A stretch of DNA of 64,000 nucleotides from Candidatus Poribacteria bacterium (GCA_965198235.1 OZ240248.1:4032001-4096000); one strand, 5' to 3'. Numbered from the stretch's first letter, positions 3 through 37,039 are shown. The notes: generated from the letters alone by a model not told the origin. Made by a program: numbers and translations.

Positions 3-161
3 GGGATCCTGTTAGGTCCCTTCCTTGGAGGTATCTCAGCGGACTCATCATTGGGCGTTCAGAGTCCTTACCTACTCTGTGCGGTAGCGATTGCTATCGC
101 GATCCTCATAGAGATTTTCATTCTGTTTAAGAATTTTCGACATCAAGCAGATTCGCCTTGA
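3..161 (+). CDS. C-terminal end of an MFS-type membrane transporter (partial, window edge)
   Basis: Manual translation GILLGPFLGGISADSSLGVQSPYLLCAVAIAIAILIEIFILF...SP*; the GPxLGG motif plus a last TM helix is typical of MFS C-termini; overlaps the convergent next gene by 35 bp. Confidence 0.6.
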   Translation, partial: GILLGPFLGGISADSSLGVQSPYLLCAVAIAIAILIEIFILFKNFRHQADSP

Positions 162-1257
162 TGTAGTCTTCATCAGGCGTAACACCGAGACCTGGACCGT
201 CCGGGACCGTGACGACGTGGTCGTGGATTTCGACACCGCTCACTGCCATGGTTTCCAGAAAAGCAGGGGCGTTGAGTTCAGCCGGGAGAGCAAGGTCCAA
301 AGTTGAAAAGAGGTGGACGCTTGCGATGAACCCGATTCCTGCTTCTGTCAATCCACTGCCGAGAAGTTCAAGTGAATTGGCTTCGGCGATAGGCACGCTC
401 TTAAGACATTCGTTTAACCCGCCAGATTTGCACACCTTCAAAACAACAGCATCTGCACATTCCAAGCGTGCGATCTTCGCTAAATCGAAGTAGGTGAAGC
501 AACCCTCGTCAATGGCGATCGGGATAGAAGCATCTTCTCGAACTCGCTTCATACCGAACCAATCCTGACTTGCGACGGGTTGTTCCATACAGTAAATTTC
601 ACGGATGTCTGCGACTCGCTTCAGCAATTCAAGGGCATTCGATGGCGTGTAAGACTGATTCGCATCAATCCAGAGTTTAGCATCTGGTGCGGCTTCATGC
701 ACTGCGCGCAGGCGTTCTTCATCTTCCGCTGGCATTCCAGCGACCTTCACTTTGAAACAGGAACACGGGGACAGGGCTTTTGCTTTCAATCCCATTATCT
801 CTGGCGTATCAATGCTCAGCGCATAGCAGAGAGGTAGCGTATCGTGGCGTTTTCCGCCGAAGAGGGTATGTAGTGGGATGTCAAGGATTCGTCCACGGAG
901 GTCCTGCAAAGCGATATCAACGGCGGCTTTCGCAAAAGGATGTCCATTGCTAACGGCAGGTTTCAATGCCTGATAAATTGCCTCATGGATTTGGTTGAAA
1001 TTTAATGGATTACGTCCGAGCAGCAATGGAGCAATGTGATGTTGAACGGTGGTTGTGATAGATTCGGTGGTTTCGTAACTCCATGAAGGGAGCGCGCGTT
1101 GTTCACCCCAACCGATGTAGCCATCGTCTGTTGTAATTTTGACAAAAACATGGTCGCCTGCGGATCCAGGGTCTCCGACAAAGCCGGTCCCGATATTAAA
1201 GATGTCTTTCATCCCGACAGCAGTGGGATAAACGTCTACGTGGGCTATTTTGGACAT
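127..1257 (-). CDS. Mandelate racemase/muconate lactonizing enzyme family protein (enolase superfamily)
   Basis: GWGE, AKAAVDIALQDL, FKVKV, metal ligands IDAN/MEQP/IDE, LKVCK, PDGPGLG. Confidence 0.9.
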   Translation of the reverse strand: MSKIAHVDVYPTAVGMKDIFNIGTGFVGDPGSAGDHVFVKITTDDGYIGWGEQRALPSWSYETTESITTTVQHHIAPLLLGRNPLNFNQIHEAIYQALKPAVSNGHPFAKAAVDIALQDLRGRILDIPLHTLFGGKRHDTLPLCYALSIDTPEIMGLKAKALSPCSCFKVKVAGMPAEDEERLRAVHEAAPDAKLWIDANQSYTPSNALELLKRVADIREIYCMEQPVASQDWFGMKRVREDASIPIAIDEGCFTYFDLAKIARLECADAVVLKVCKSGGLNECLKSVPIAEANSLELLGSGLTEAGIGFIASVHLFSTLDLALPAELNAPAFLETMAVSGVEIHDHVVTVPDGPGLGVTPDEDYIKANLLDVENS

Positions 1258-5565: not shown

Positions 5566-5619
5566 CAATTTCTCCCTCCCCATCTGGTGTGAGATGTCGC
5601 TTCTACAGGCATCCAAAAT

Positions 5620-6858: not shown

Positions 6859-6911
6859 GTTTGTCCTCTATGTTAGCGGTATGTAGTTTTTGGTTTCGTA
6901 TCAGATCTGTG

Positions 6912-6936
6912 GTCGGGATTCGGAGATCCCTCCTAC
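6912..6936 (-). repeat. GTAGGAG-type REP-like element (related copies at 19321-19345, 54681-54705, 57024-57047)
   Basis: Reverse complement GTAGGAGGGATCTCCGAATCCCGAC; copy at 54681 reads GTAGGAGGGAACTCCGATTCCCGAC. Confidence 0.75.
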
Positions 6937-6956
6937 AAGGGAGTTCATCCCTATCT

Positions 6957-8207
6957 TTATGTATGACGGATGGCATCAATGGGAGCCATTTTCGCGGCTT
7001 GGCTGGCGGGATAGTAACCGAAGAAGATGCCCACTGCAGCACCCGCTCCCACGGAAATGAGCACGGCTTCTGGGGTCAGGACAGAGGGCCACGCCATTTC
7101 TTCTAAAAACTTACCGACTATCCATGCGAAGCCTTTTCCAACGATAGCACCGAACGCAATGCCGAGCAGACTGCCAATCAGACACAACAACACAGATTCG
7201 GTGAGGAACTGTAAACGGATGTCAAAGCTTTTCGCACCAACGGCTTTTCGCAGTCCAATTTCTGGGATCCGCTCTGTCACCGAGACGAGCATGATGTTCA
7301 GGATACCGATACCGGCTACAATCAAGGATACGGAAGCGATAACGACGAGCACTGTCTCTATGATAAAGATCATTCTTTTCGCATGCGCGATTCCCTTTTT
7401 TGCCGACCACGTTCGGAAGAAGGTATCATCGCCACCGTGGTTACGCATGATGATAGTCTTTACTTCTTTGAGTGCTTGATCTACGAGGAGCGGACTCTTG
7501 GCACGTACCATGATGTGCCCGACGTGATCGTGTCCCCAAAACCGTTTTTGTGCGGTTGTAATCGGAATGAAGAGCATATTGTCATCACTTCTACCTCGCT
7601 CCAGTCCGTCTCCCCGGCTCTCCATGATTCCGATAACAGTGAAACGTTTGTTGTTTCCATGATTGTTGATTATAACTTCCTTACCGATAGGGTCCTGCCC
7701 TTTAAACTGTTCTTTCCAGATTTTTGAGCCGATGACACAAACCTTCGTCCAAGTGTCCATATCGGTATCAGCGAGGAATCTGCCGTATTGCGTGCGCCAT
7801 TCCCGAACGGCTTGGTATTCATTCGTCGTCGCACGGAGATAGGTTCGTTGAAATTTCCCGTCAACACCAAGGCTGATGTAGTAGCTACCCTCGACGGTGG
7901 CAACTTCAACGGAGGGACATTCTGCCAGAACGTCTCGAAGGTCGTCCATCTCTAAATGGTGTGGGCTGGTGTTGCGTTGCCAACGTCCGTTCTTGCGAAC
8001 ATACCCGGGCCGATAAACACCAAACATATTGGGTCCACCGATCTGGTTAACCTCCGCCATCAGTAGTCTTTCGGCACCCGCGCCAAAAGACATCATGGCT
8101 ATTACACCCGCAATACCGATCGTAATTCCCAAGAGTGTAAGAACTGTGCGGAGTTTGCTTCCGCGAAGCACAGAAAACGCTGAGATAAAATTTTCAAGGA
8201 GGTTCAT
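6957..8207 (-). CDS. MacB/FtsX-type ABC transporter permease (tandem paralog)
   Basis: Same motifs and long stretches identical to 5620-6858. Confidence 0.92.
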   Translation of the reverse strand: MNLLENFISAFSVLRGSKLRTVLTLLGITIGIAGVIAMMSFGAGAERLLMAEVNQIGGPNMFGVYRPGYVRKNGRWQRNTSPHHLEMDDLRDVLAECPSVEVATVEGSYYISLGVDGKFQRTYLRATTNEYQAVREWRTQYGRFLADTDMDTWTKVCVIGSKIWKEQFKGQDPIGKEVIINNHGNNKRFTVIGIMESRGDGLERGRSDDNMLFIPITTAQKRFWGHDHVGHIMVRAKSPLLVDQALKEVKTIIMRNHGGDDTFFRTWSAKKGIAHAKRMIFIIETVLVVIASVSLIVAGIGILNIMLVSVTERIPEIGLRKAVGAKSFDIRLQFLTESVLLCLIGSLLGIAFGAIVGKGFAWIVGKFLEEMAWPSVLTPEAVLISVGAGAAVGIFFGYYPASQAAKMAPIDAIRHT

Positions 8208-23298: not shown

Positions 23299-23625
23299 TT
23301 AAGTTGCAATGACCTGCAGGTGCCCAACTTTTTCATCCGAAGGTGTGATATGAATTTCAATATTGCGGTTCAACTGATTTAGAATTGTGAACAGTTGGTC
23401 CACATTAAAATCAAAATCGCCTTTCAGTATTCGGGACACATCGGACGGATCGAGTCCAAAGCGTTTTTCTGCTGTTGCAGGAGTCAGTTTTAGTTCTTCA
23501 AGAAGGCGATAGATTTTAATCACAAGATCCACTCTTAGCTGCTCGCGTTCAGCTTCTGCTTTGGAGAAACCCATATCCAGAAATACGTTGCCAGAGCTCT
23601 CCTCAATTTTGACTTCTTCACTCAT
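23299..23625 (-). CDS. XRE-family HTH protein (HigA-like antitoxin, no adjacent toxin)
   Basis: SSGNVFLDMGF N-terminus, helix-turn-helix DVSRILKG. Confidence 0.8.
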   Translation of the reverse strand: MSEEVKIEESSGNVFLDMGFSKAEAEREQLRVDLVIKIYRLLEELKLTPATAEKRFGLDPSDVSRILKGDFDFNVDQLFTILNQLNRNIEIHITPSDEKVGHLQVIAT

Positions 23626-23681
23626 TTTTTCCTCTTCACATTTCTCATCGATTGATCCAAAATTCTACCTTTTTGTTGATA

Positions 23682-24208
23682 TTATACCCTATCCTCCAAA
23701 ATCCTTGCAACATTTTCAGCGATGCGTTCTTCAAGTTGGCGTGCTTCGGCATTTAAGACTTCTAATTCCTCGTTGAGTTCGCTAAACCGTTCTGCGAAGT
23801 CGAAATCATCAGGTGCTTGTTCGGCGACTCCGACATAACGCCCAGGGTTCAGACTCCATCAACTTGAGGGTTTTCCTCTTCTATTGCCTTCATAGCGTCA
23901 GTAATAGCTTGCCCAATGTTCTCGCTCTCTGGCAAACTGAGGAGGTACTGGAAACGAGCATTCTCTGGCAGGTAAAACACCCCGCGCGCTTGGTATTGTG
24001 TTCTTGGATCGGTCCGTCTGCGCCTGCTCGTAGAGGCTTCGCTGCTGATTTCTTGCTCAGCCTGCGTAAATTTATGATCAGCGTATCGTAGAAAAATAAG
24101 CCCGAGCACAGGTGTTGAGTATTCTGATGCCCGAAGGCGTGAATTGGCTCTGAGTTCATCGGCGGCACTCCAGAGTCTGTTTTCGATTTCTGCGAGGTTA
24201 GTGTTCAT
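23682..24208 (-). pseudogene. hsdM: Type I methyltransferase HsdM with the catalytic core deleted
   Basis: N-terminus [36 protein letters not shown] joined out of frame to the C-terminus [11 protein letters not shown]...LEERIAENV; no NPPF or SAM motif. Confidence 0.88.
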
Positions 24209-24278
24209 AATGTTCCTTTTCCGATGAAAATTGCTATAGGCGAGGTTAGAAACCTCGCCAGCAAGCATGAGCGAAAAC

Positions 24279-27200
24279 TTAGAAGTAAGATCTGCCGAGT
24301 GAGTTTCCAACACCGAATGCGTTGTAAGGCGCGCCAGCAGGCAAGGTGCGGAGTCCCCAAGTTTCAGTCGTTGCGTCATAACCGACACCCATCGAAACCG
24401 CAGGCTCCTGAATCAGATTCACCTGGAACGTGAAGTCCTGACGGACGTTGTTGTAGGGTGAGTCTTCGCGCTTAATTCCAATACGGTTCCAAGAGATGCG
24501 GAGGTTCCAATCGTGGAGATTGCGTGTCATACTAATGCGTTGTGAATAAAATTGCCCCTCGATAGGATAATAGATAAGACTCACGTCAAATTCGAGGTCT
24601 TGGCTAAAGCGGTAGCGTCCAGTGGCGGTAATCGCTCGAGAAGTCCGCCTTGAGGTATGCCGTTTGCTAAAAGAGTTTCCGAAACTGATATTCCAAGCCG
24701 GTCGGGTGTAGCGAATATTGGTACGGAACCCGACCATTTTAAATTGCTTTCCATCATCGGGATGTGGATTGGGGTCGTGTGTGAATCGGACGGTCATATT
24801 TAAGTTTCGACTCGGAAGCGGGACGAATGTGAAATCGCTCTCAATGGGTTCATATTTCCGCCTATACAAAGGGTCGAACTCCGTGAAATCGGCGGTGAGC
24901 CGGGTATCAAAATAGAAGACCCGGTGCGCCGACTGGCTCCGTCGGGTCTTGATCTCAAAGTTTGTATTGAAGTTATAGGTGAGTCTCTTCCGTTCATAGA
25001 AATAGGTGCTGGGACCGAAAGGATAGAGGTTCTCATCTTCATCAACAGCAGGCTGATAATTGAATCGAAGTGAGGATTGGATTTCGTGTCTCAACTTTCG
25101 GAGTCCAGGGATATAGTCGACGTTGAAGACACGGAAGAGCGTGTTTGTAGCAGATCCATTAAAGCTGAAAACACCTTTTACAATGTTCCTATTCTTCTCC
25201 TGGTCCTGGTCGTGCCATACCATGTTTGTGTTGAAATCAAGGCTCATTTGAAGTTCCCGCAAAGGCGTAATCAAAAGCGTTGACTGCTTACGGACATCGA
25301 ATCCGAGGTCCAGCGTCTGTAGATATACATCTCTCTCTTCACCCGCTTTACCCTTATAGACTTGTCTAAAGAAGTTACCGAATTCAATATCTAAGTCGAA
25401 ACTTGTGCTTTCAAGGGTTGGAACAGTAAATAGTGAGAGAAAAGGGCTTTCAGTTTTGAACTTTTCAGCAACGCTTTCCATACGTTCATTGAGACTACCA
25501 AAGAGTGGTAACGCACTCACACGCATCCGTGAGAAATTCACAGTGAGTTGTGGCAGTTTCTGTAGCAAGCTTGTGCCTTCATCCGTGAAATCGTGAACGT
25601 GTCGGACTTCGAGTCTACTGGTAATATCTCCGATTGTTTCCCGTGAAAACGTGAGGTTGTCGTTCTCGTCGCGATCCGTTAGAGAATCGGTAGATAAACC
25701 GGTTCCATAGGTGAGTATTCCGAAAGTGTTAAGCCTGGATTCTCCGGGGAGCTCCAGTTCTTCCTTAAAATTACGGGCTTGCAACTCTGTTCTACCGGTG
25801 AAATTGATGGGGCGTCTACCGGCTTCGCGGCTATCCCATGGGGTATAGAAGGATTGGGTGTGCCCCCATCGCATAATCCAACGTCTACCGATGCGTGTAG
25901 CATTCTGCCGCTCGTAGGAGTACCGGTCTGCGCCATAGAAATAGATGTCGCCTCGATAAGTTCGTTTCTTATCAACCTTGATGAGTCGGAACGACTTTTT
26001 GGTTTGAATAGGACGACTACTAAATTCACCGGCGTACAACCTTTGCGCATCTGAGGCCACGGCACTCGGATCTTCCCATCGTCCTCGAAAACCGTGTTTC
26101 CGGTAGACTTTGAGTTCGTCTTCGGCTTCGGCATCTTCTTCAGTGACGGGGTCTTCGGAAGCAACTTCGCCATCGGACTGATCGGAGGTCGTTTCGCCTT
26201 CTGCTTCATTCTCTGACTCGGGCTGCTCTACGCTCTGATTTTTATCAGTATCATCTGCCTCGGGCTGCTCCGCGCTCTGATTTTCATCAGTATCAGGTGT
26301 ACCAGCCTGTTGCGATGGCTCCTCTGATAGGGGAGAAACATCATCAGATTCTTGTGTTTGCGCATCTTCGGGTGTGTCCAGTCCTTCACTATCTTCCTCG
26401 GTTTTTTCCGGTGCAGGGTTCATCACGTCTTCGTAAAAAGCATCCCACTCCACCTCGAACTGTTCAGCGAGTGTCTCGAAAGATGGGGTCTCCTCTTTTT
26501 CAATCAATTGGAAAATGTAAATACCTTCAGGCATGGTGATAGGTCTACGCTCAGTAACGTCTCCCGGACTCTTTAAGCGTCTGACTGAGGGCCGCCATGA
26601 GGATTCCATCTCATTTAAGAGCAAGCCTTTCCCTTCATTAGGTTCGGATAAGGTCGGTTCGGCGATGTCCGCGAATTGATCAGGAACTTGTATAAGTTGT
26701 TCAAAAGGCTCACCTTCGTGGGCACGTTCGAGCATGTCATTTGCTAATTCGCGTAGGACATATTCTGTATCTTCGCTCGCGCTAATAGCAATGTCAATAC
26801 GACGGAGTTTAATTTCACGCTCGCCATAGACATCAACGACCCGCTCTGCTTTAAGGATGTGGAAGGCAGATTCAGTTTGGAGGATAGGGCTAATTTCGCC
26901 CTCTTGTAGTGCGAACACGGCTTCCTCTAAAACCGGATCAAGTTTGGGTTTGCCCTCCTCGTCAACTTCACCGGGAACGAGGAATCCCAGGTCACCGCCA
27001 TCGTAACGGGTGTCGAAGTGGTCAGAATCGCTCTGTGCGATTTGTGCGAAGTCAGCACCTTCTTCTTCGAGCTGCCTGAGGACTTCTTCTGCGCTATCTC
27101 TCGCACGATTGACATCATCGTCAGTGATTTTATATTCAATAAAAATTTGCCGCAGCCAATAGCGGTCGTATTCACCGTCAAGCCGGTCTTGTAATTCCTC

Positions 27201-28202
27201 TGCTTTTTCTTTTAACTTCGTGCGCTGGTTGGGTGTTACATCAGGTGGAATAGGGATATAGATTTCTTGAAACTGCGTATCATTGAATCGGTATTTACCT
27301 TCAAACCCGAACCCTTGTCCGCGTTTTGAACTCCTGTCGTAGAGCAACGCCCCATCATAACGGCGTTTGCGTGCCACAGGTAAGATAATACTGATGTTGG
27401 GACCCTGGTAACTATCCGTCCCAATTTTAACGATAATTTTTGCGATCTTACCTTTCCGTATGTCTCGGCGCATGACCGGAAAATAGAAGAGTGGGAACCC
27501 ACCAATGCGTAAAACGATATTTTTGGCGATCATCTCCTGATCCTTTCGGACAATGACTTCGGAGACACTAAAATAATAGTGCGGATATTTCAGTGAGCAG
27601 GTCGTCAGGGATGCACCGCGGATATAGGAGCGGTCTTCCTGTATTTTAAAGATTTCACTGCCGCCGAAGTACCACGGGTCGCTGAATGTAAACCCATCCC
27701 GAGCGATTCCTTTTTTGGTTTCGAGGTTGAAGATGAGTTCATCAGAGTAAGTTTCTTCGTCCCCCATCTTTAGGTGGACGTTCCCGGATGCGCGCAGCAG
27801 ATTCTCATCAAAGTCTGCCCAGACGTGGTCTGCTCGGAGAATGACATCTTCAAATTTGATAAGGGCATTTCCGTGAATTTGAACGAAATTATCAATCATA
27901 GCCAGATCGTCGCCATCGCCGATTACCATGCCTTCTTCAGGCACATCTGTTTCCGGATTCAACCGCTCTGAGCCAGACCCCTCCTCCTGTGATCCCTCCT
28001 CCTGTGTCTGATCCGTGGATTCGGGGACCTCTGTTTCAGACACCGGTGGTTCAACAGGTTGCGCCTCTTGCGCGACACTGAACCCAACTGGGCAAAGGAG
28101 ACACGCGATGACTAACAGCACCAGTGCTATACACTCAATTCCGGGCATTGGGATAAGGAAGGCGTGATGTTGGTTTTCTAATTTACCTTGCGGATAAGTC
28201 AT
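24279..28202 (-). CDS. lptD: LPS-assembly protein LptD-like with inserted parvulin (PpiC) domains
   Basis: Signal peptide, OstA jellyroll (LRADHV, ASGNVHL, LTTCS..PHYYF, PLFYFP), beta-strand-rich C-terminal half ending YF; internal GGDLGFL...[24 protein letters not shown]. Confidence 0.8.
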
Positions 28203-28358
28203 AGCCTCTGGGAATTTAACGGTTTCCGTGTTCGAGTCGCCTGATCCGTTGTTGCAGGCTTGGGTTTTGGTGCTGTACCATACATATCTTTATTTCAGTT
28301 GCGACTTAACCAGAAACCTGCTCGTAATGAAATGGAGAGCAGCCCAGGGGGCCATAAA

Positions 28359-29666
28359 TTAAAAATCTTTCAGTTCAATTCTAACGTAAGCGTTTTCAAG
28401 AAGTTTGTTGGTATATGCGTCCCATTCCTCTTGGAACCGCTGCTGGCGGAGTATTGAAGTGATCTGTCGTTTTTCTGTCTCACTGAGATTCGGACTATTT
28501 CGCTCATCGACCTTAAAGATGTGAAGACCTGATTCAGTTTCGTGGGGTTGACTGTAAGTATCAGGTTCGAGTGCTTCAATGATTGTCCGAGTCTTAGGAT
28601 TGAGTTCCGTTAAGGAGCGGACCCCGAGGTCCCCACCGTTATCTCGCGTTTCAGTATCGTCGGAATGTGCCACTGCAAGTGTGTTGAAATCTTCGCTGTT
28701 TTCCAGTTTTTTGAAAACTTCAACAATACGCTCGCGTGCCTCCTGCATAGCCTGTGCGCCCGGTGTGAGCGGAACAATGAGATACCGAAATGCAATCATC
28801 TTATCGGTTTTCATTTCGACAATGAAAACATAGAGTCCCTCGTTTCCCTCAACCGGCTCGCTGAGTTTGCCAGCCTCCAAGTTTGTGAGCACGTTTTGAA
28901 ATATCTTTGGAAATCTCTCGAGCTCCTCAGTCGTAGCTTCTATGAGAATTCCTGCTTGTGAACTTGGGTTCTGCTTAGAGGTGTATCGTTGTGCGACCTC
29001 CTCAAACTTCGTGCCATCTGTTGTGATTTCATTGAGAGCTTCATTAACAATTTCAAACGCGGCATCCCGGTCGGCTTGATTCGGTTTAAAGGCGACAAAA
29101 ATGTGCCGCAAATGGACCTTATCTGTTTTAGTGGGCAGTTGGTCCCGATTTTCCTCAAAAAACTTTTGGATCTCGCGCTCTCGCACTTGCAATCGCGGGA
29201 CAATTCTTCCCATGACCAGCTTCTCTGCTTTCAGGTTTCGCTCTGACTGCTCCCGAAACGCTACGAGTGTCATACCCTCTCTGTTTAATTGCTTTTTAAA
29301 CTCCTCATCTGTTTCAATTTCATATCTCTTTTTAAAGTCTTGAATGTACTGCTCAATTTCTACGTCGCTGACGGTAACTTTCAGGGTTAGTGCGGCTTCC
29401 AAAAGGAGCATTTGCCTGATAAGTCGGTCAAGTAACTGAGACCTTTGTCGCTCAGCCTCGTTGAGTGCCTCCCGTTCGCTGAAACGATAAACTTGCTGGA
29501 GTTCCATGGCGCGCTGATTCACTAAGACATCAAGTTCTCGCTTGGTCACGACATCGTCATTAACGTAAGCGATGATTCTGTCAAATGTGCGAGCAACACT
29601 ACTCCGCACACCACTGCCGATGAGTAGTAGAATGAGCATGAAATAGGCAGCTACTTTGTAAGCCAT
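28359..29666 (-). CDS. surA: SurA-like chaperone/peptidyl-prolyl isomerase
   Basis: DRIIAYVNDDVVT SurA N-domain, VHLRHIF, HSDD..NGGDLG parvulin motifs; adjacent to lptD. Confidence 0.85.
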   Translation of the reverse strand: MAYKVAAYFMLILLLIGSGVRSSVARTFDRIIAYVNDDVVTKRELDVLVNQRAMELQQVYRFSEREALNEAERQRSQLLDRLIRQMLLLEAALTLKVTVSDVEIEQYIQDFKKRYEIETDEEFKKQLNREGMTLVAFREQSERNLKAEKLVMGRIVPRLQVREREIQKFFEENRDQLPTKTDKVHLRHIFVAFKPNQADRDAAFEIVNEALNEITTDGTKFEEVAQRYTSKQNPSSQAGILIEATTEELERFPKIFQNVLTNLEAGKLSEPVEGNEGLYVFIVEMKTDKMIAFRYLIVPLTPGAQAMQEARERIVEVFKKLENSEDFNTLAVAHSDDTETRDNGGDLGVRSLTELNPKTRTIIEALEPDTYSQPHETESGLHIFKVDERNSPNLSETEKRQITSILRQQRFQEEWDAYTNKLLENAYVRIELKDF

Positions 29667-29732
29667 GTGAACGCCTCCATTATTGTAGGGATGAGGCGCG
29701 ATCGTCAGATCGCGCCTCAATTACGGAAAAGG

Positions 29733-30767
29733 TTATTCTTCAGGTTCTGCCTCTACAGGCGGATCTTCGGGTTGCTCTTCCGCCGGTGGCTCTTCGGTTT
29801 CTTCAGGTTCTGCCTCTGGAATACGATCTATGTACGTTTTGACCTCGGCGCGTTCGCGAAGTTGAGCAATCCAGTTGTCCATGAGTTCTTGTCGCCTCTC
29901 GCGTTCCGCTTTTCGGACAACGCTCTTACGAACATCCTCCTCCTCAAACGGTTTTTGGTATTCATCGCGAGCTTCGTCTTTTCGGAACATCATATAGTAT
30001 TTTTGCCCCTGAACTTCGACTTCGATGACACCATCGTGCAACTGACCGATCTCCGCAGCAAACGCTGCATCTAAGAAGGGTTCAGTTCCCGCAGGGAAGG
30101 CACTCCGACTAATATAGTCGGTGTCACCCGGAGTGGCTGGATTTGCACCGGGACCGACGAGTTCACCACGATCAGAGAGTTCCTGAGCGATTTCAAGGAT
30201 GGCTTTGCCTTCCTTGATTTGCGCGTAAACTTCATCAGCCCGCTCTTTATTGAGGAGCGTGACACAGGAAAGCCTCACCTGCTCAGGACGAATGTACTCC
30301 TGTTTGTTCGCTTCGTAGTGCTGAACATAGTCGTCTTCAGTCAAAGAGAGTTGGTCGTCGACCTCCTGAGCAGTAATCTTCTTAACCATCAACTCGTGAA
30401 GATAATCCTGAACCTTCTTGAGAATTTCCGGGTCTTCGTTGAGTTTTTCATCTCGGGCAAGACTGAGAATTAGGCGACTCTCCGCCATGAGGACCATATA
30501 GGTTTCCAGCCCCTCTTTGTCCTGATATTGACGCTGTTTGTATTCGGGGAGTTCGCTAATTTCCTGCATCATCTCTTCAAGGGTGATGCGTTGTTTGCCG
30601 TTCCACTCAAATTCAGCGATGACCGTTCCATCGGCACCGATCGCCTTGTCGCCACAACTATAGAAAACAGGATGTGTGACAAGGACTCCGAGTAAAAGTA
30701 ACGGGATAACCGGAAATCCGGACTGATTATTAATTCTGCCCATGAAGCGGGCAACTACTGTGAGCAT
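29733..30767 (-). CDS. PrsA/PpiC-type peptidyl-prolyl isomerase-like lipoprotein
   Basis: Possible lipobox YSCG, YEANKQEYIRPEQVRLS, divergent parvulin core, LRERAEV. Confidence 0.75.
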   Translation of the reverse strand: MLTVVARFMGRINNQSGFPVIPLLLLGVLVTHPVFYSCGDKAIGADGTVIAEFEWNGKQRITLEEMMQEISELPEYKQRQYQDKEGLETYMVLMAESRLILSLARDEKLNEDPEILKKVQDYLHELMVKKITAQEVDDQLSLTEDDYVQHYEANKQEYIRPEQVRLSCVTLLNKERADEVYAQIKEGKAILEIAQELSDRGELVGPGANPATPGDTDYISRSAFPAGTEPFLDAAFAAEIGQLHDGVIEVEVQGQKYYMMFRKDEARDEYQKPFEEEDVRKSVVRKAERERRQELMDNWIAQLRERAEVKTYIDRIPEAEPEETEEPPAEEQPEDPPVEAEPEE

Positions 30768-30834
30768 TTATCTAACTCCTTTTCTCAACCCAGCCCTTTG
30801 GCTGGGGACGTTGCTTCCACAAAATGGGAATAGA

Positions 30835-31803
30835 CTACTGATCTGATTCCTCGGTCTCCGCTTCTTCTATTTTCGGCGGTTCCGGAATATTTTCAGGATA
30901 GGTTTTTAACTTGCCTTTCTCAGTAATTTCGGCGACCCACTCATTGATGCGTGCGCGTTTCTTGGCGCGTTCAACAGTTCTTCGGACATCGTCTTTGACC
31001 TCGTCGAATTCCTGTTGGCGGTCCGGATGATGCTCTTCTTTACGGAAGATGAGGTAGAAGGTCTCCTCATTGACATCAATCTCAAAAAGGGTATCCGTCA
31101 TTTCACCAACTTCTTGGTCAAATACAGCCTCAGTGAATTCCAACCAACGCGGTGATGCGGATTTGGTGAACATGTAGGTATTCCCCGGATCGTCCTCATT
31201 GGTGCCAGGTCCGTTGGCGAGTTTACCTGCCTCAGCGAGCTCCTTTGTCATCTCAACGATGTCTTTGCCTGCGTTGATGGCATCCAGGGTCTCGTTGGCA
31301 AAATCTTCATCATCAAGGGTAATGCAGGTCGCGCGAGCTTTGGCTGCCTCAATGTACTCACTCAAATTCGCTTGATAATACGCCATGAGATCCTCATCGG
31401 TAATGGCGATTTTGGCATCCACTTCTACTTCGGTCAATTTTTCAACCATCAGCTGATGAGTATAGTCCTCAAGCTTTTTGACGTGTTCAGCAAGTGAATC
31501 AAACCCTTCATCCGCAGCACGAAGGATTTGGAGCCGTTCATCTATGAGTTCCTCAAGATACTCGGCTTTGTCTACCCGAGCCTTATAGTTCTGTTGACGA
31601 TAAACCGGCAATTCTGCGATGGCAGCGTTCAAATCTGCCAACGAAACTTGATACGGCTTGCCGTTCCATTTGTACTCCGCCAAAATCACCTTGCTTTCAT
31701 CCATAGCAGACATGGGTTGTTCATGGCCATCGGACTGAACAAACCTCCATGTCAGTAAACAGGTCAGAGTAACAATTACAAAGATAGCAATCGTTTTTTT
31801 CAT
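30835..31803 (-). CDS. PrsA/PpiC-type peptidyl-prolyl isomerase-like protein (paralog of the previous gene)
   Basis: Signal peptide MKKTIAIF, ELPVYRQ, YYQANLSEY, FTEAVF, FDEVK. Confidence 0.75.
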   Translation of the reverse strand: MKKTIAIFVIVTLTCLLTWRFVQSDGHEQPMSAMDESKVILAEYKWNGKPYQVSLADLNAAIAELPVYRQQNYKARVDKAEYLEELIDERLQILRAADEGFDSLAEHVKKLEDYTHQLMVEKLTEVEVDAKIAITDEDLMAYYQANLSEYIEAAKARATCITLDDEDFANETLDAINAGKDIVEMTKELAEAGKLANGPGTNEDDPGNTYMFTKSASPRWLEFTEAVFDQEVGEMTDTLFEIDVNEETFYLIFRKEEHHPDRQQEFDEVKDDVRRTVERAKKRARINEWVAEITEKGKLKTYPENIPEPPKIEEAETEESDQ

Positions 31804-31948
31804 ATTTTTAATGTTCCTTGCGGTTCGGTCAGGTCGGTTTGGGAAATGAAGTGCCTTTCCGTATATCCAGCCCGTCCGTTGGTTAGGCTTACGCGCTTTG
31901 GACACTACGCGTAGCACGTCTTTTTTAGTTGACCCTTCGTTTTTACGA

Positions 31949-34900
31949 TTACGCAACAAACAACCTGAGCGTTTGTTGCAATTCGGTCAACATATTCGCG
32001 CCAGTCACTCCCGGCATGCGAATCTTAAGTTGTGCCGGAGGTTGTAACTGGAGGTTTTTATTTTGGTGGACTATCTCAACGAATTTCTTCACATTAATTC
32101 GTGGTTTTCTTTCATCAAAGGTAACCTTCACCTGTTCCTTTCCAGCAACAATGGCTGTGACACCGAGATGTTGGCTGAGTTGTTTGATGTCAGCGACTTC
32201 CAGTAACATCTCAGCCGGTTCGGGTATCGCACCGTATCGATCTTTCAACTCCTCTCGAAGCTCATTCAGGGCTTCTCGATCCTTCAGCCCAGCAATTTTC
32301 TTATAGATAGAGACCTTTTGACGGCTATCTGGGACGTAGTTATCGGGCAGATAGGCTTCAACGGGTAGGCTGATACGCGTTTCCACGGTTTCCTCAACCT
32401 TTTCACCCTTTAGTGCCATCACCGCTTCTTCAAGAAGTCTACAATACAGTTCATAACCGACAGTGACGATATGTCCATGCTGTTCCGAACCGAGGATATT
32501 TCCAGCACCCCGAATCTCTAAATCTCGGAGGGCTATTTTGAAACCTGAACCAAGGTCTGTGAATTCTTCGATAACGCGGAGCCGCTTCTGCGCGCCTTCC
32601 GTGATTGCCCGGTCCTGTGGATAGAAGAGGTATCCGTAAGCCTGGGCAGTAGCACGTCCGACGCGTCCTCGTAACTGATAGAGTTGCGCCAAACCGAGTG
32701 CATCCGCTCGATTAATGAGGATCGTGTTAACGTTGGGAATATCCAGTCCTGATTCAATAATCATTGTGCAGACAAGGACATCATGTTTATGCCGGACAAA
32801 CTCCAGCATAACGGTCTCTAATTCACGTTCAGGCATCTGTCCATGTGCAACAGCAATGCGTGCATCCGGTGCCAGTTCTTGAATTGCTAAAGCGATACTC
32901 TGGATATCCTGAACGCGGTTGTGGACAAAAAACACTTGCCCGCCGCGCCCTAATTCTGTGGTGATGGCTTCGCGAATCACATCACTGTCATAAGGCATGA
33001 CGTACGTTTGAATCGGCAATCGATCTGCTGGTGGTGTGTTAACGACGCTAAAGTCTCGTATGCCAACAAGCGACATGTGGAGTGTACGTGGAATCGGCGT
33101 AGCGGTTAATGTAAGGACATCAATGGTTTCTTTGAATTGTTTTACTTTCTCTTTATGCTTAACGCCGAAGCGATGTTCTTCGTCAACTATTAAGAGCCCG
33201 AGGTTGTCGAACTCAACCGTTTTGGATAGTAGGCTGTGTGTTCCAATAACAACATCAATAGTACCCTTCGCCAACCCCGCTTTAATCTCTTTTATCTCTC
33301 TCGGTGTGCGGAATCGGTTTAACATTTCAATGTTGACGGGAAAAGGTTGAAAACGTTTTTCAAAAGTGTCGTAGTGTTGGAGAGCGAGAATGGTCGTAGG
33401 GACAAGAATCGCCACTTGCTTTTCGGACATGACCGCTTTGAAAGCGGCACGTAACGCTATCTCAGTTTTTCCGTATCCGACATCTCCACAGACGAGTCTA
33501 TCCATCGGACGTTCATCTTCCATATCTGCTTTGACATCTTCAATTGATTGGAGTTGATCGTCAGTTTCCTGATACGGAAAAAGTGCTTCAAATTCGGTTT
33601 GCCATGGCACTTCAGCAGGAAAACTGAAGCCTTTGCGCGCTTGACGAAGGGCGTATAACTTGAGGAGTTCACCCGCCATTTGTTCGATTGATTTTTTAAC
33701 GCGTCCCTTTCGCCGACTCCAAGCTGTCCCCCCAAGCCGATCCACACGTGGCTTATAGTTGTTATCTTTGCTGCCAATATACTTCTGAACGAGGTCGACT
33801 TGATAGGTCGGTACATAAAGAATGTCATCCGCGTTGTATCTGAGTATCAGAAAATCTTGTGACTTTCCGTCAATTGCCAATCGACGTATCCCATCATAGA
33901 TAGCGATGCCGTGCGAGACGTGTACGACATAATCCCCAACTTTTAGATCGATGAGACTGAGAATTGGTGTTCCGTCTGTAGAAGGGCGGTGTCGGGTGGG
34001 ACGGCGATGACGACGACTGCCAAAGAGTTCATCTTCGGAAATAACAGCGAGATGTAGTGATTCATTGAGAAACCCTTCACTAATTGTTCCGACACTGGTT
34101 TCAATATCTGGAGGAAATAAGTCGCGTTCCGCTAAGATTTCAGATACGCGTTTTGACTGTTGAGGGGTCTCACAGAAAACATGAACCCGCGTTCCCTCCT
34201 CCGTCCAAGTTTTCATCTGATTGATGATCGTTTGATAGTTGCCGGATGGCAGTGCAAGCGGTTTCATCTCGAAATGCAGAGGCGGCATCTTATTGTCCAT
34301 GACCTCACGGGGTGGTGCTAAGGACGACGAGACAACGGAATACTTCTCTAATTCGGTGTTGAGTGTTTCAAAGGAGGCGAGCAGCTTATCCGGCGGGACC
34401 ATGAGGTCAGATCCCTCTAACTTCTTCTGGTACAACTCCTGTATCCGTTCGTGCATTTGCGAGGCTTCGCGCTTCTGCCATTGAGGCTCTATCAAGCAGA
34501 CAATCGTGTCATTGGGCAGATAATCGGGGAGCAATTCGGTTTCTGGAATGAGCATGGGCAAAAAGCCCTCTATCCCATCATTCAGTGGACATTCCTCAAA
34601 CCGATATTGAGAAGATGCCGCTTCTGTTAAACATTGTGTTATCTCCCGAACCGTGTTTATCAGTTGTGGCGTTGCGTGTTCTTGGATGAGGGCATCCGCT
34701 TGGGTTTGCCAATAGTCAACAGATACATCAGCAGAAAGGACTTCCCGCAAGGGCGTAAGCGTAACCGATTCGATGGGTTCAGTCGAACGTTGCGAAATCG
34801 GATCAAAAGCACGGATAGTATCAATTTCATCGCCAAAAAACTCGACGCGCATTGGGGTGTCAGTCGTCAGCGGATAGACATCTAAGATGTCGCCTCTACG

Positions 34901-35455
34901 CGCAAATTCGCCCTTGACTTCTACAAGTTCAACATTTTGGTATCCCCCGCGGATAAGCGTCGCCGCGACATCGTCTGGATCTATCTCATCTCCGAGATTA
35001 AGGACGCTACAAGCATCGGCAAAACGGTGACGTGGTGGGAGTCTATAAAGCATCGCTTGACTTGATGTTACAATGACACTCCGTTCTTTATATATTAAGT
35101 GCTCCAGACATCGAATTCGATCCGCGACGGTTTCCTTGGGAGGCGCGATGCCATCAAAGATTTTTCGGTGCCAGCCGGGAAACAGATTCATCTTGGACTG
35201 TACATCGAGCATATGTGTCGTTTCTGAAGCAGGATACGCCGTGTATGTACATATTTCTTCTAAAACTTGCTCGGCTTCACGTTGTGAAGGAAGGATAATG
35301 AGGAAGGATTTATTTGGAAAATCGTCAATAAGGGTTGCCAAAAGATACGAGGTTGATGCGTTTGCCAATCCTCTGAGCCATGGAAGTTTCTTGCCATCTT
35401 TGAGGCGTGCCACCAATGTTTGATAATTTTCTGTTTTGCGTAAAAACTCTATCAC
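31949..35455 (-). CDS. mfd: Transcription-repair coupling factor
   Basis: RGDILDVYP, CarD/TRCF VVHVSHGI, GDVGYGKTE, DEEHRFGV, QLRGRVGR, RDLEIRGAGN. Confidence 0.97.
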   Translation of the reverse strand: MIEFLRKTENYQTLVARLKDGKKLPWLRGLANASTSYLLATLIDDFPNKSFLIILPSQREAEQVLEEICTYTAYPASETTHMLDVQSKMNLFPGWHRKIFDGIAPPKETVADRIRCLEHLIYKERSVIVTSSQAMLYRLPPRHRFADACSVLNLGDEIDPDDVAATLIRGGYQNVELVEVKGEFARRGDILDVYPLTTDTPMRVEFFGDEIDTIRAFDPISQRSTEPIESVTLTPLREVLSADVSVDYWQTQADALIQEHATPQLINTVREITQCLTEAASSQYRFEECPLNDGIEGFLPMLIPETELLPDYLPNDTIVCLIEPQWQKREASQMHERIQELYQKKLEGSDLMVPPDKLLASFETLNTELEKYSVVSSSLAPPREVMDNKMPPLHFEMKPLALPSGNYQTIINQMKTWTEEGTRVHVFCETPQQSKRVSEILAERDLFPPDIETSVGTISEGFLNESLHLAVISEDELFGSRRHRRPTRHRPSTDGTPILSLIDLKVGDYVVHVSHGIAIYDGIRRLAIDGKSQDFLILRYNADDILYVPTYQVDLVQKYIGSKDNNYKPRVDRLGGTAWSRRKGRVKKSIEQMAGELLKLYALRQARKGFSFPAEVPWQTEFEALFPYQETDDQLQSIEDVKADMEDERPMDRLVCGDVGYGKTEIALRAAFKAVMSEKQVAILVPTTILALQHYDTFEKRFQPFPVNIEMLNRFRTPREIKEIKAGLAKGTIDVVIGTHSLLSKTVEFDNLGLLIVDEEHRFGVKHKEKVKQFKETIDVLTLTATPIPRTLHMSLVGIRDFSVVNTPPADRLPIQTYVMPYDSDVIREAITTELGRGGQVFFVHNRVQDIQSIALAIQELAPDARIAVAHGQMPERELETVMLEFVRHKHDVLVCTMIIESGLDIPNVNTILINRADALGLAQLYQLRGRVGRATAQAYGYLFYPQDRAITEGAQKRLRVIEEFTDLGSGFKIALRDLEIRGAGNILGSEQHGHIVTVGYELYCRLLEEAVMALKGEKVEETVETRISLPVEAYLPDNYVPDSRQKVSIYKKIAGLKDREALNELREELKDRYGAIPEPAEMLLEVADIKQLSQHLGVTAIVAGKEQVKVTFDERKPRINVKKFVEIVHQNKNLQLQPPAQLKIRMPGVTGANMLTELQQTLRLFVA

Positions 35456-35514
35456 TACTTTTTCCTTGACAAACCGTGCTGGCGATTGAAGTTACAAAAT
35501 GTATATTAGGCGTC

Positions 35515-36282
35515 TTAGTCTGTAAATTCGATGTCGGTTAAAGTGACTTTCACTGTCAATTGTCCTATTTTGCTCTCCGCTTTGACAGGTAACCGACGTT
35601 CATCATCCGTGAGCCAAAAGCGGTCGCCTGCTGAAGTTTGCAGGACGAGGGTTTTGACGGCACCCAATGCCTTATTTTTTACCATCTCTCTACGCTCAAC
35701 AGTGAGCGTAACCTTCTGGACTTTTCCCTTCGCGATAATTGGAAAGAAATAAGTTTGACCGAGTTCAAACTTTTTAGAACGTAGAAAGTAGAGCGTTGAC
35801 AGTTCATCCTGTGTGCCAACGGGTATGTCTATGACCTTTGCCTCGCGCTTTTGAGGCGATTTCGGCTTCGGGCGTGAGATTTTTTCATATGCTGCCGTTG
35901 CCTCTCGAAAGTCAACCGTGACAGTAGCGCGATATTTTTGATCCCGCAACTGGTTCCGAAAACGGACGGGTGAGAGGGTCGTCGGATTTAGATACGTTTC
36001 TTCCTGTCTCTGGAAACTATAGACTCTGAAAAGTGCACGAGTTTTCATTTCAGACTGGATATGATAAACGTCCTCCCCGTTCACCGATTCCTCTCTGACA
36101 ATCCAGTCTGTCCGCTGGGCGGCAGGTATTTTTTTCCAACTAATATTATAGGTTAATTTTTCACCGACCCTTAGCGGATTGGGAAAGATATTTGGACTTT
36201 CAACAAGTGAGCGGGAAGCACTATTTACGGCAAGAGTTCCTATGAGTAAAAAGATGAAAATCAGGTGTTTTGCATACTGCAT
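35515..36282 (-). CDS. DUF3108-like exported protein
   Basis: Signal peptide, GEKLTYNISW, DELSTLYFLR, WLTDDERRLPVK. Confidence 0.75.
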   Translation of the reverse strand: MQYAKHLIFIFLLIGTLAVNSASRSLVESPNIFPNPLRVGEKLTYNISWKKIPAAQRTDWIVREESVNGEDVYHIQSEMKTRALFRVYSFQRQEETYLNPTTLSPVRFRNQLRDQKYRATVTVDFREATAAYEKISRPKPKSPQKREAKVIDIPVGTQDELSTLYFLRSKKFELGQTYFFPIIAKGKVQKVTLTVERREMVKNKALGAVKTLVLQTSAGDRFWLTDDERRLPVKAESKIGQLTVKVTLTDIEFTD

Positions 36283-36397
36283 TTTTTAACTATTAAGTTT
36301 CTGTACCGATTTTTCCGTTGTCAAAATCGGGTTTTCGGTGTACTCCGATTGGATTTGAGAATGCTCGAATTTTTCTTTTTTTCAGTACCAGTAGGTG

Positions 36398-37039
36398 TTA
36401 GAACCTATGTGTAAAGATTAGAGAACGGATACCATTATCCCTTTGTTCCACTTGTACGGAAAATCTTTGATTATTATACGCCTCGGCTGTCTTCGGGGCA
36501 TCAAAAATATTCCAAATGTGGATTCCGATGCCTGTTGCGAGAAAAACACCGCTGAGAAACGCGTGGCTCTTCATTCGGGTGCGCCCCTGCTCGTACGTTA
36601 AGAATTCACCCGTTCGGATGTCTTGAAATCCTGTCTCGAAAACACCTTGTTTGTTGTAATGCAGGGCGCGCGCGATGTTATAGCCGGCAAGTGCGAAAGT
36701 CCCTAACTCGGCAGTAAGGAAAAGCGTCGCTTTCGTATAATTGCCGGCGTAAGCTTGTCCCAATCCGGGCATAAACGTTGACAGCCGCGATGCTTTCTTG
36801 AGATCAAGTGCTGGATAGTAGCGTTCTGCATGTGACCGAAACAGCGGATAATCCGATTCAGGTTCAGGCGTACCCAAATAGTTACGCAGAAGCGGTTGCG
36901 TTCTGCGATTTTTCGCGTCGGATTTCTCATCAGTAGGCGCGGTTTCAGCGTTTCCAGTGACGAAAAGAAACAGAAACGCAAGAAGTATGTATAATGGCGG
37001 CACCCATGCCGCCCCAACTTTTTTTAGCATGAAGCGCAC
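36398..37039 (-). CDS. Membrane protein, DUF5683/TM2-like
   Basis: LSTFMPGLGQAYAG, TM helices, WNIFDA, C-terminal Phe. Confidence 0.65.
   Translation of the reverse strand: MRFMLKKVGAAWVPPLYILLAFLFLFVTGNAETAPTDEKSDAKNRRTQPLLRNYLGTPEPESDYPLFRSHAERYYPALDLKKASRLSTFMPGLGQAYAGNYTKATLFLTAELGTFALAGYNIARALHYNKQGVFETGFQDIRTGEFLTYEQGRTRMKSHAFLSGVFLATGIGIHIWNIFDAPKTAEAYNNQRFSVQVEQRDNGIRSLIFTHRF

Follow-up and report, generated by a model that had tools for sequence, protein, structure and literature searches.

A three-parvulin module in the predicted LptD barrel of Candidatus Poribacteria

The lptD gene and the identity of its product

Here we analyze a stretch of 64,000 nucleotides from a Candidatus Poribacteria bacterium (GCA_965198235.1 OZ240248.1:4032001-4096000; the whole stretch is called the window below) and focus on one gene in it, whose product appears to unite the lipopolysaccharide (LPS) translocon protein LptD with several parvulin folds in one polypeptide. 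The gene is an intact, uninterrupted open reading frame (ORF) at 24279..28202 on the minus strand and encodes 1307 amino acids (P0001). A preliminary description, made from the sequence, had read it as an LptD with a multi-parvulin insertion of about 440 residues after the first barrel strands, a reading that Pfam, alignment and an AlphaFold2 (AF2) model all bear out. Aligned with canonical LptDs of ~700 residues, P0001 has an extra segment of 443 residues (~307-749), corresponding to window positions ~27284 down to ~25956, next to the bounds of 27280 to 25960 proposed at first. This insertion begins after a hairpin, and barrel sequence picks up again past residue ~749 and continues to a C-terminus that ends, as had been noted, in YF (...GRSYF). 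The parts of the protein and the nearest genes are collected in Table 1.

Table 1. Parts of P0001 and upstream neighbours, with positions in the window (E, strand; H, helix; numbered as in the full model unless stated)
Feature	Residues of P0001	Position	Strand	Remarks
Whole lptD gene with embedded parvulin module, P0001		24279..28202	-	1307 aa
Signal-peptide-like hydrophobic stretch, then acidic, poorly conserved N-terminal region	1-107	27882..28202	-	from translation; outside the folded part
Beta-jellyroll (beta-taco), LPS-receiving domain	108-247	27462..27881	-	ten strands, pLDDT 81-90
Barrel strands b1-b4	257-306	27285..27434	-	E150-156, E160-171, E175-184, E188-210
Split host parvulin Pa, N-terminal piece (strand b1 and helix a1)	307-343	27174..27284	-	
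Parvulin P1	347-458	26829..27164	-	contains the Pfam Rotamase match; best conserved parvulin
Parvulin P2	461-572	26487..26822	-	degenerate sequence, parvulin-like fold
Helix a2 of split parvulin Pa	575-600	26403..26480	-	H468-487; H281-300 in the insertion-only model
Acidic disordered lineage-specific loop within Pa	601-697	26112..26402	-	
Pa C-terminal piece (b2, a4, b3, b4)	698-749	25956..26111	-	E593-599, H606-614, E630-654
Barrel strands b5-b26	750-1263	24414..25955	-	22 strands, E630-654 to E1147-1156
Helical elaboration, turn b10/b11	899-925	25428..25508	-	H792-807 and H815-818 between E774-787 and E826-843
Family-specific conserved C-terminal tail	1264-1307	24282..24413	-	past b26, where canonical LptDs end
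P0002, SurA homologue (SurA_N and two Rotamase domains)		28359..29720	-	Pfam, NCBIfam; upstream neighbour
P0003 and P0004, Rotamase_2 (PrsA/PpiD-like)		29733..31959	-	Pfam PF13145, E 8.5e-9 and 2e-7

Pfam finds a Rotamase domain (PF00639, residues 354-453, E 2.8e-19) in the same protein as LptD_2 (PF19838, residues 930-1060, E 2.5e-5, 23.6 bits at a cut-off of 22.5), and so settles in the affirmative the earlier question of whether Rotamase lies inside LptD. An OstA_2 match at residues 105-163 stays below its cut-off, and the NCBIfam model for LptD, PRK03761, matches residues 110-248 weakly (E 1e-4), far under its whole-protein cut-off. Within the genome that holds the window (5.17 Mb, two contigs, 96.3% complete), the ORF of P0001 is the sole match to PF19838, and PF04453 has no match anywhere in these 5.17 Mb. 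An LptA-like gene, LptE and LpxC are present at other places in the same genome.

The kinship with canonical LptDs becomes apparent in profile comparisons. Using hhalign, a profile of 27 family members was aligned with one of 40 canonical LptDs of ~650-750 residues, which gave a probability of 100 and an E of 1.7e-70 over 602 columns that start in the jellyroll, lie on both sides of the insertion and extend as far as the final strands. The conserved TTC...PHY motif and the Pro-rich b1 region of canonical LptD are present in the family as well. Another profile (A2) matches LptD at E 2.6e-55, but most of its members are canonical LptDs. A profile of the family by itself, searched against the sequences of the PDB, returned parvulins only, with SurA first and no LptD among the 60 of 66 matches listed. 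The sequence tie to proteobacterial LptDs is therefore remote and runs via LptD_2-type proteins, and for the same reason the LptD identity rests on Pfam, hhalign and the fold described below. Taken together, these comparisons and the model indicate that P0001 is the genuine and only LptD of this genome, predicted to insert LPS with LptE as its plug.

Fold, position and anatomy of the insertion

Residues 108-1307 were folded with AF2 from an alignment of 85 rows (residue number = model number + 107), giving a mean predicted local distance difference test score (pLDDT) of 78.6 and a predicted template modelling score (pTM) of 0.62. The best matches of the full model in the PDB are all LptDs (Foldseek E 2e-16, template modelling (TM) scores of 0.57-0.59 on the target), and VIA-align superimposes it on a model of E. 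coli LptD with Z 20.3, on full-length cryo-EM and crystal structures with Z 18-19 and on the barrel-only LptD 9rpt_A with Z 16.8 (456 residues, root mean square deviation (rmsd) 3.7, model 148..1159 on chain 228..764). The jellyroll (model 11..127) resembles LptA 2r1a_C with Z 13.4 and rmsd 2.9. In the model, ten strands form the jellyroll, four belong to the barrel before the insertion and 22 after it, and the barrel total of 26 is the number found in LptD. The doubt whether the C-terminal half folds as an LptD barrel is thus answered alike by the AF2 fold, Foldseek and VIA-align.

To which side of the membrane the insertion points depends on the turn it occupies. MAFFT and hhalign place the gap near b5 differently, and neither was used for the insertion point; instead, we relied on the strand count and on the ranges matched by VIA-align. 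Towards the N-terminus, model residues 148/149 and 164 fall on 228/229 and 244, respectively, of E. coli or Shigella LptD. In E. coli LptD, G227 and T236 lie within b1, and 239 and Y248 within b2 (PMC12644819; this source and PMC3747590 are cited here and below for the excerpts that concern LptD and SurA). After the insertion, the alignment with 9p1u_F begins at model 643, which equals E. coli 285. Combined with the offset of 80 before the insertion, this leaves ~440 model residues that have no E. coli counterpart. The C-terminal anchor is D1231 of an LHDW motif, located in a three-residue b24/b25 turn and, by profile alignment, in the column of the CC of solved LptDs. The CC of E. coli LptD is located in the periplasmic b24-b25 turn (PMC12644819), which identifies even-to-odd turns as periplasmic, and an insertion that takes the place of the b4/b5 turn would be periplasmic by strand parity. 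From this strand counting and these range anchors we infer, as a matter of topology, that the module lies in the periplasmic turn b4/b5, beside the jellyroll hinge.

The same side of the barrel is elaborated elsewhere, as the periplasmic turns b6/b7, b8/b9 and b10/b11 of P0001 are also enlarged. At b10/b11, P0001 has two short helices where a distant clade of the family, represented by P0131 and P0132 in the alignment, carries a fourth, well-preserved parvulin in what is again an even-to-odd turn. Four Pfam Rotamase stretches each are found in P0131, P0132, P0289 and P0278.

The inner organization of the module was read from the full model together with a second AF2 model of the insertion only (pLDDT 77.2). 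Both give the same order: an N-terminal piece of a parvulin that we call Pa, a complete parvulin P1, a complete parvulin-like domain P2, a long helix, ~95 disordered acidic residues, and the C-terminal piece of Pa. In the full model, barrel strand b4 continues unbroken (E188-210) into b1 of Pa, followed by a helix (H217-235), a start that the insertion-only model repeats (E4-23, H30-47), and the last strand of Pa (E630-654) continues directly as barrel strand b5. The passage of b4 and b5 into the Pa sheet forms a ribbon of 23 and 25 residues with pLDDT 81-92. In these models the insertion thus appears as a three-parvulin module grafted into the b4/b5 turn, with the end strands of Pa extending b4 and b5, and with P1 and P2 nested between the Pa helices a1 and a2. 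By the order of secondary structures in two independent models, the pieces before P1 and after P2 sum to one parvulin, and we suggest that they pack together as a single, split domain. One clear parvulin, a degenerate second and a split, nested third had been anticipated, and all are seen in the AF2 models.

Further observations support the assignment of the less obvious domains. In the family profile, the C-terminal piece of Pa together with a2 aligns only to residues 92-159 of Pin1 (E about 1e-4 to 1e-5), which are the C-terminal two thirds of that parvulin, with its first strand and helix excluded. In relatives that have no acidic loop, the C-terminal piece is a plain parvulin reading ...F..LA..YS....GGD.GY..., and helix a2 aligns with their ...F..LA..YS helix. 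P2 of P0001 has no Pfam match; in both models it has the order b-a-a-b-a-b-b with pLDDT 73-91, and its region of the family profile aligns to both parvulins of SurA. The best Foldseek match of the insertion alone is a two-parvulin peptidyl-prolyl isomerase (PPIase), 8hm4_B (E 1.6e-9), followed by SurA, PrsA and PpiD, and VIA-align places the P1-P2 part (model 239..465) on the related chain 8hm3_B with Z 14.3.

What had been taken for an acidic linker of ~100 residues is indeed an acidic stretch (residues 601-697). It does not link domains; within the split parvulin it connects helix a2 to strand b2 as a loop that is specific to the lineage. Its pLDDT stays below 50 at residues 601-695 (model 494-588; insertion model 306-397). 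The loop is 46% identical among close relatives and 2-3%, with gaps, in P0128, P0130 and the distant clade, and it is absent from alignment rows P0128-P0135, a pattern that marks it, from sequence comparison, as a late, fast-evolving addition. The start of the loop (residues ~588-599, 26370-26400) also has an EWDA(F/Y) likeness by BLASTP to the C-terminus of P0002, FQEEWDAYTNKL. As the segment is lineage-specific, we take this likeness as chance and not as the remnant of a SurA core. A complex prediction of the jellyroll (100-250) with the module (307-749) scored 0.00 in both runs, and is neutral on binding.

Conservation, distribution and genomic context

Active parvulins carry a pair of catalytic histidines on their first and last strands. 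At the positions which we take, from the parvulin motif, to correspond to these two residues, counts over the 27 family members reveal a consistent departure. Pa has Glu at the first position in 27/27 (E313) and Arg at the second in 25/27 (R739). In P1, position 352 is Gln in 23 of the 27 and position 448 is His in 20, and in P2, position 468 is Arg in 13 or His in nine and position 562 is Tyr in 25. The pairs of P0001 itself are E313/R739 (Pa), Q352/H448 (P1) and R468/Y562 (P2), so that the His pair is kept in none. Because no domain retains it, the module is not a canonical prolyl isomerase. We regard Pa, P1 and P2 as parvulin folds of which isomerase activity of the canonical type is not expected, and the invariant Glu/Arg of Pa resembles a structural replacement.

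The module is nevertheless well kept. Between P0001 and the distant clade, identity amounts to 43% in the jellyroll, 37% in P1, 33% in the C-terminal piece of Pa, 25% in P2, 20-27% in the barrel and ~2% in the acidic loop, which suggests purifying selection on the module at least as strong as on the barrel. Over residues 45-107, identity falls from 66% in close relatives to 11% in the distant clade. The C-terminal tail (residues 1264-1307) is the best conserved segment in close and mid-range relatives (93/84/64/48/33%), and AF2 models it with low confidence (pLDDT 37-65). G1272, G1274, Y1275, D1276, W1282 and P1288 are invariant in it, and it is always found together with the parvulin module. 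It could be a luminal or periplasmic latch.

Cysteines differ within the family. C202 of the jellyroll TTC motif (window 27597-27599) is Cys in 26/27 members. D1231 (window 24510-24512) is Asp or Asn in 14 members and Cys in the other 13, all of the distant clade, and these same 13 keep both cysteines. C202 is the single Cys of mature P0001, in which the pair TTC-to-LHCW/CC is incomplete, and the interdomain disulfide seems, from these residues, to have been lost in this lineage. The pair, which ties the jellyroll to the b24/b25 turn, is a common accessory of LptDs but does not define them.

The architecture is widespread in the phylum. A survey of related genomes had been proposed: in a sample of 121 species genomes, many assembled into one contig and together representing 19 genera in 8 families, the gene is present in 121/121. 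Probes of 101 residues across both junctions (residues 270-370 and 700-800) each have one in-frame, stop-free match per genome in all 121, and the frames that hold these matches measure 1113-1450 aa in 120, the exception (G006) being cut by contig ends. A word-index search gave 372 matches, of which the top 120 are 68-100% identical, 1195-1411 aa long and located on contigs of up to 10 Mb. Those named among these 120 are Candidatus Poribacteria bacterium, 'peptidylprolyl isomerase' or 'hypothetical'. Among 1.84 billion cluster representatives, searched exhaustively, 25 match at E 1e-30 or better. Relatives with the full architecture reach down to 33% identity (P0127, P0128, P0130, P0131) and have 2-4 Pfam Rotamase stretches each. 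Canonical LptDs of ~650-800 aa match P0001 in the jellyroll only, and among 22 other long (at least 800 aa) LptD-like or parvulin matches checked, the combination of LptD with Rotamase is absent. Starting from P0131, a search gathered 25 relatives with the architecture, whose labels include one Poribacteria, two 'bacterium' and one partial Gottesmanbacteria. Candidatus Gottesmanbacteria is a group that is not known to have an outer membrane, and the contig of this partial member (P0135) is for that reason probably mis-binned. A search of the Atlas returned the family's own two clusters and then canonical LptD clusters at 0.82-0.83, and no other architecture.

The annotation of the family hides its nature. 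The Atlas label is 'PpiC domain-containing protein', and among the matches listed, named homologues are called 'peptidylprolyl isomerase', 'parvulin-like...', 'PpiC domain-containing protein' or 'hypothetical', and never LptD. Surveys of the pathway would score Poribacteria as lacking LptD, because the annotation gives only 'peptidylprolyl isomerase' or 'hypothetical'.

Public sequencing data add independent evidence on the junctions. Parts of the gene occur in 20 runs from 12 studies, four of which hold at least half of the sampled words; what follows refers to contigs of these runs, among the pieces listed. The downstream junction (~25960) is bridged by a sponge metatranscriptome contig covering 25412-26362 with 0 differences and by one contig of run X5, and the upstream junction (~27280) by a 376-base contig of run X1 with 26 differences, from a related strain. 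Together with the 121 genomes, these contigs dispel the concern, raised at the outset, that the junctions might be chimeric. In the RNA-library run X3, 2/30 bins are uncovered; these are contigs only and DNA carry-over is possible, so that they are no proof of transcription. In one X5 contig, from a relative with a likeness of about 90-95%, 163 bases (25907 to 26071) are skipped in the region of the Pa C-terminal piece and b5, which may be a replaced stretch rather than a deletion.

Three further SurA/PrsA-like proteins had been placed near lptD, and Pfam confirms them upstream on the same strand in the order P0002, P0003, P0004, followed by mfd (P0005). P0002 matches the families SurA_N, SurA_N_2 and SurA_N_3, and a SurA-like ORF is also found upstream of lptD in genomes G002, G004 and G006. 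P1-P2 of the insertion is colinear with P1-P2 of P0002 (BLASTP E 2e-7, 20% identity, 285 columns). As to the operon proposed for these genes, the shared strand and the short gaps stand; a scan of 23600-36400 with promoter and terminator consensus sequences is not above chance, with 16 promoter-like (14.2 expected) and 11 terminator-like sites (13.4 expected). Downstream of lptD follow an HsdM N-terminal fragment, a helix-turn-helix (HTH) protein, two short-chain dehydrogenases and unrelated genes. The HsdM-only ORF (179 aa, 23849-24388 on the minus strand, E 1.1e-23) overlaps the 3' end of lptD by ~110 bases and is probably the remnant of the methylase gene of a type I restriction-modification system.

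The spacer between surA and lptD holds a dispersed short repeat (28225-28350, core about 28297-28350). In all four runs, contigs are 10-20x as deep in the bin 28228-28378 as in the bins next to it, and numerous loose ends occur there. Of the 43 genomic matches to a 126-base probe of the spacer, most fall on the final ~45-50 bases of the probe. The spacer has no Rfam match, and the repeat looks like an intergenic element of the repetitive extragenic palindrome (REP) or miniature inverted-repeat transposable element (MITE) kind. Elsewhere in the window, two adjoining copies of ~1.3 kb at 5619-7974 (74-81% identical, repeat families D1-D3, spacing 1337-1349) look like a tandem gene duplication, and 51782-51865 holds a tandem pair of 42-base units that are 90% alike.

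Possible roles of the module and comparison with known systems

LptD is essential, a target of antibiotics and the hardest outer-membrane protein to assemble in E. coli. It is also the client most dependent on SurA in that organism (PMC3747590), and in this context our preferred reading, held tentatively and with somewhat less than even confidence, is that the module is a tethered, SurA-derived, non-enzymatic peptide-binding aid that acts in cis on the biogenesis of LptD. The module would fold fast after export, would keep the long unfolded LptD barrel soluble or dock it at BAM and at the free SurA encoded by the neighbouring gene, and would remain on the mature translocon afterwards. A link to assembly is suggested by the SurA-like gene next to lptD here and in distant members of the family, by the colinearity of P1-P2 in the insertion and in P0002, and by the separate end-to-end LptD-SurA record P0298 described below. 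Several observations weigh against such a role. In E. coli SurA, the chaperone activity is located in the N+C core and the parvulins are largely dispensable (PMC3747590), so that parvulins alone need not chaperone, and Pfam finds neither SurA_N nor a SurA core in the insertion. Moreover, a rigid, continuous two-stranded ribbon joins barrel and module, the neighbouring turns b6/b7, b8/b9 and b10/b11 are enlarged, and the distant clade has its fourth parvulin, all of which suits a lasting periplasmic structure better than a folding aid of passing use. Of the chaperone module that the preliminary description had envisaged, the parvulin folds remain; the chaperone part is at best partly supported, given that a SurA core is missing by Pfam and the His pair is absent from all three domains.

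These points lead to the main rival explanation, which we consider possible if rather unlikely, namely that the module permanently braces or regulates the hinge between jellyroll and barrel and the mobile b1-b4 side of the lateral gate, doing the jobs of the interdomain disulfides, LptY and LptM of E. coli. There, disulfides at b24/b25 tie the jellyroll to the barrel and LptY gives the beta-taco stability. LptM lies against the inner face of strands b1-b4 and makes the gate looser, and the hinge itself alternates between a contracted and an extended state (PMC12644819). The rigid b4/b5 ribbon into the Pa sheet (pLDDT 81-92), the enlargement of the adjoining periplasmic turns with a further parvulin in b10/b11 of the distant clade, and the conservation of a module that has lost its catalytic residues and is still kept as well as the barrel or better would all suit a brace. 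The same holds for the replacement of the barrel-side Cys by D/N in 14/27 members including P0001, whose mature form is left with one Cys. Yet the distant clade has both the Cys pair and the module, which therefore did not arise as a replacement of the disulfide. In addition, the contact between module and jellyroll is only putative, and three peptide-binding folds meet no obvious need in a brace. Assembly aid in cis and hinge brace are not mutually exclusive.

Combining the two, one may picture a phylum-wide hybrid translocon with a skirt of non-catalytic parvulins in the periplasmic turns of LptD, three domains in b4/b5 in every sampled lineage and a fourth in b10/b11 of the distant clade, where one polypeptide takes over the jobs of SurA, the disulfide, LptM and LptY and couples folding at BAM to control of the hinge. 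We think this picture improbable as a whole; if true, LptD would be the first natural client to carry a chaperone-type module within its own barrel.

Doubtful to a slightly greater degree is an action in trans, in which LptD would offer a parvulin platform anchored in the outer membrane. On it, other outer-membrane proteins or lipoproteins would be bound while nascent, or BAM or LptA would be docked, and protein assembly would thereby be coupled to LPS assembly. Such a platform would fit the several adjacent parvulin folds at the periplasmic rim, the three further genes for periplasmic parvulins around lptD and the peptide binding of P1 of SurA (PMC3747590). On the other hand, its partner is only putative, and a free SurA, two PrsA/PpiD-like proteins and a parvulin protein of 653 aa are encoded in the genome in any case. 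LptD is of low abundance in E. coli and hence a poor general hub (PMC3747590).

We give very little credence to a module displayed at the cell surface in an extracellular loop, for example to interact with a sponge host. The MAFFT gap lies inside canonical b5 and hhalign is unreliable near the insertion, so that sequence alignment by itself cannot fix the parity of the turn; the 4 + 22 strands counted from both ends and anchored to b1, b2 and the b24-b25 turn of E. coli LptD speak against this placement, as does the second insertion site, b10/b11, which is likewise an even-to-odd turn. The parvulin proteins of Gram-negative bacteria matched by fold and profile searches are, furthermore, all periplasmic chaperones (SurA, PpiD). 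An assembly chimera, a fused gene pair or a decaying gene can practically be dismissed, as nothing in favour was found apart from the one odd X5 contig with its 163-base skip, and single, in-frame, stop-free junctions in every genome of the sample, the length of 1195-1411 aa of the top 120 listed homologues on contigs of up to 10 Mb, contigs of other runs across both junctions (among them an RNA-library contig that shows 0 differences) and a conservation pattern indicative of purifying selection all argue otherwise.

Whichever role applies, the architecture suggests a structural rule: since the first and last strands of a parvulin adjoin, a beta-hairpin can accommodate the whole domain, which can in turn house a nested pair of further parvulins. 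The purpose of the parvulin domains of SurA is still described as unsettled in PMC3747590, and with SurA-type parvulins welded into LptD and kept across a phylum, Nature provides a construct for asking what parvulins do for this protein, one open to deletion, exchange and expression. A full-text literature search, with subscription journals and supplements outside its scope, found no prior description of an LptD with a parvulin insertion, and this answers the earlier question of whether the architecture had been described; within that scope we could not find an account of this conserved design of an LptD with a barrel-embedded parvulin module.

The closest known relatives each share one part of the design. 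Canonical LptDs (PF19838/PF04453; 4q35, 9rpt, 5iv9, 8h1r, 7omm), compared here through the solved proteins of E. coli, Shigella, Klebsiella, Pseudomonas and Neisseria, have the jellyroll and the 26-stranded barrel with homology over both halves, whereas P0001 differs by the 443-residue three-parvulin module, the enlarged turns, the extra C-terminal tail and the loss of the barrel-side Cys. LptY (YedD) and LptM (YifL) of the E. coli translocon are alike in place only: they add periplasmic protein on the side of LptD where the jellyroll and b1-b4 lie, and they take part in its maturation and in the dynamics of the gate (PMC12644819); they are separate small lipoproteins unrelated to parvulins, and we claim no homology.

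SurA of E. coli (1m5y; N-domain, P1, P2, C-tail) shares the tandem P1-P2 nested in a host domain, heads the PDB sequences matched by the family profile (E 2.3e-17) and has a homologue encoded next to lptD. In P0001 the host domain is a parvulin and not the N+C chaperone core of SurA, and the module is covalently part of a membrane barrel, so that of a SurA-type chaperone the tandem P1-P2 is present and the core absent. The aligned SurA has His at the second-His position, whereas the pairs of the family are Glu/Arg in Pa, mostly Gln/His in P1 and Arg-or-His/Tyr in P2. Within SurA itself, P1 binds peptides and regulates the core, and P2 is the sole active isomerase, with an activity that is dispensable (PMC3747590).

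A different union of the same partners occurs in P0298 (1352 aa, labelled LptD, Methylococcales bacterium), in which a PF04453-type barrel (441-824) is followed in one frame by a whole SurA (SurA_N 929-1065, two Rotamase domains 1097-1306) that lies outside the barrel. Known from a protein record only, with one cluster member on a single contig, it is either a genuine end-to-end fusion or the product of read-through or a frameshift between neighbouring lptD and surA genes. The PPIase of 8hm4/8hm3 (in complex with BfUbb) is the best structural match of the insertion, with VIA-align Z 14.0-14.3 over P1-P2; it differs in being soluble, has TM-scores of only 0.34-0.38, and lacks both the split host parvulin and the barrel. 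Finally, the ushers of chaperone-usher systems have a plug domain spliced between neighbouring barrel strands, where it plays a gating role. The plug belongs to another barrel family and has another inserted fold than the parvulin module of P0001.

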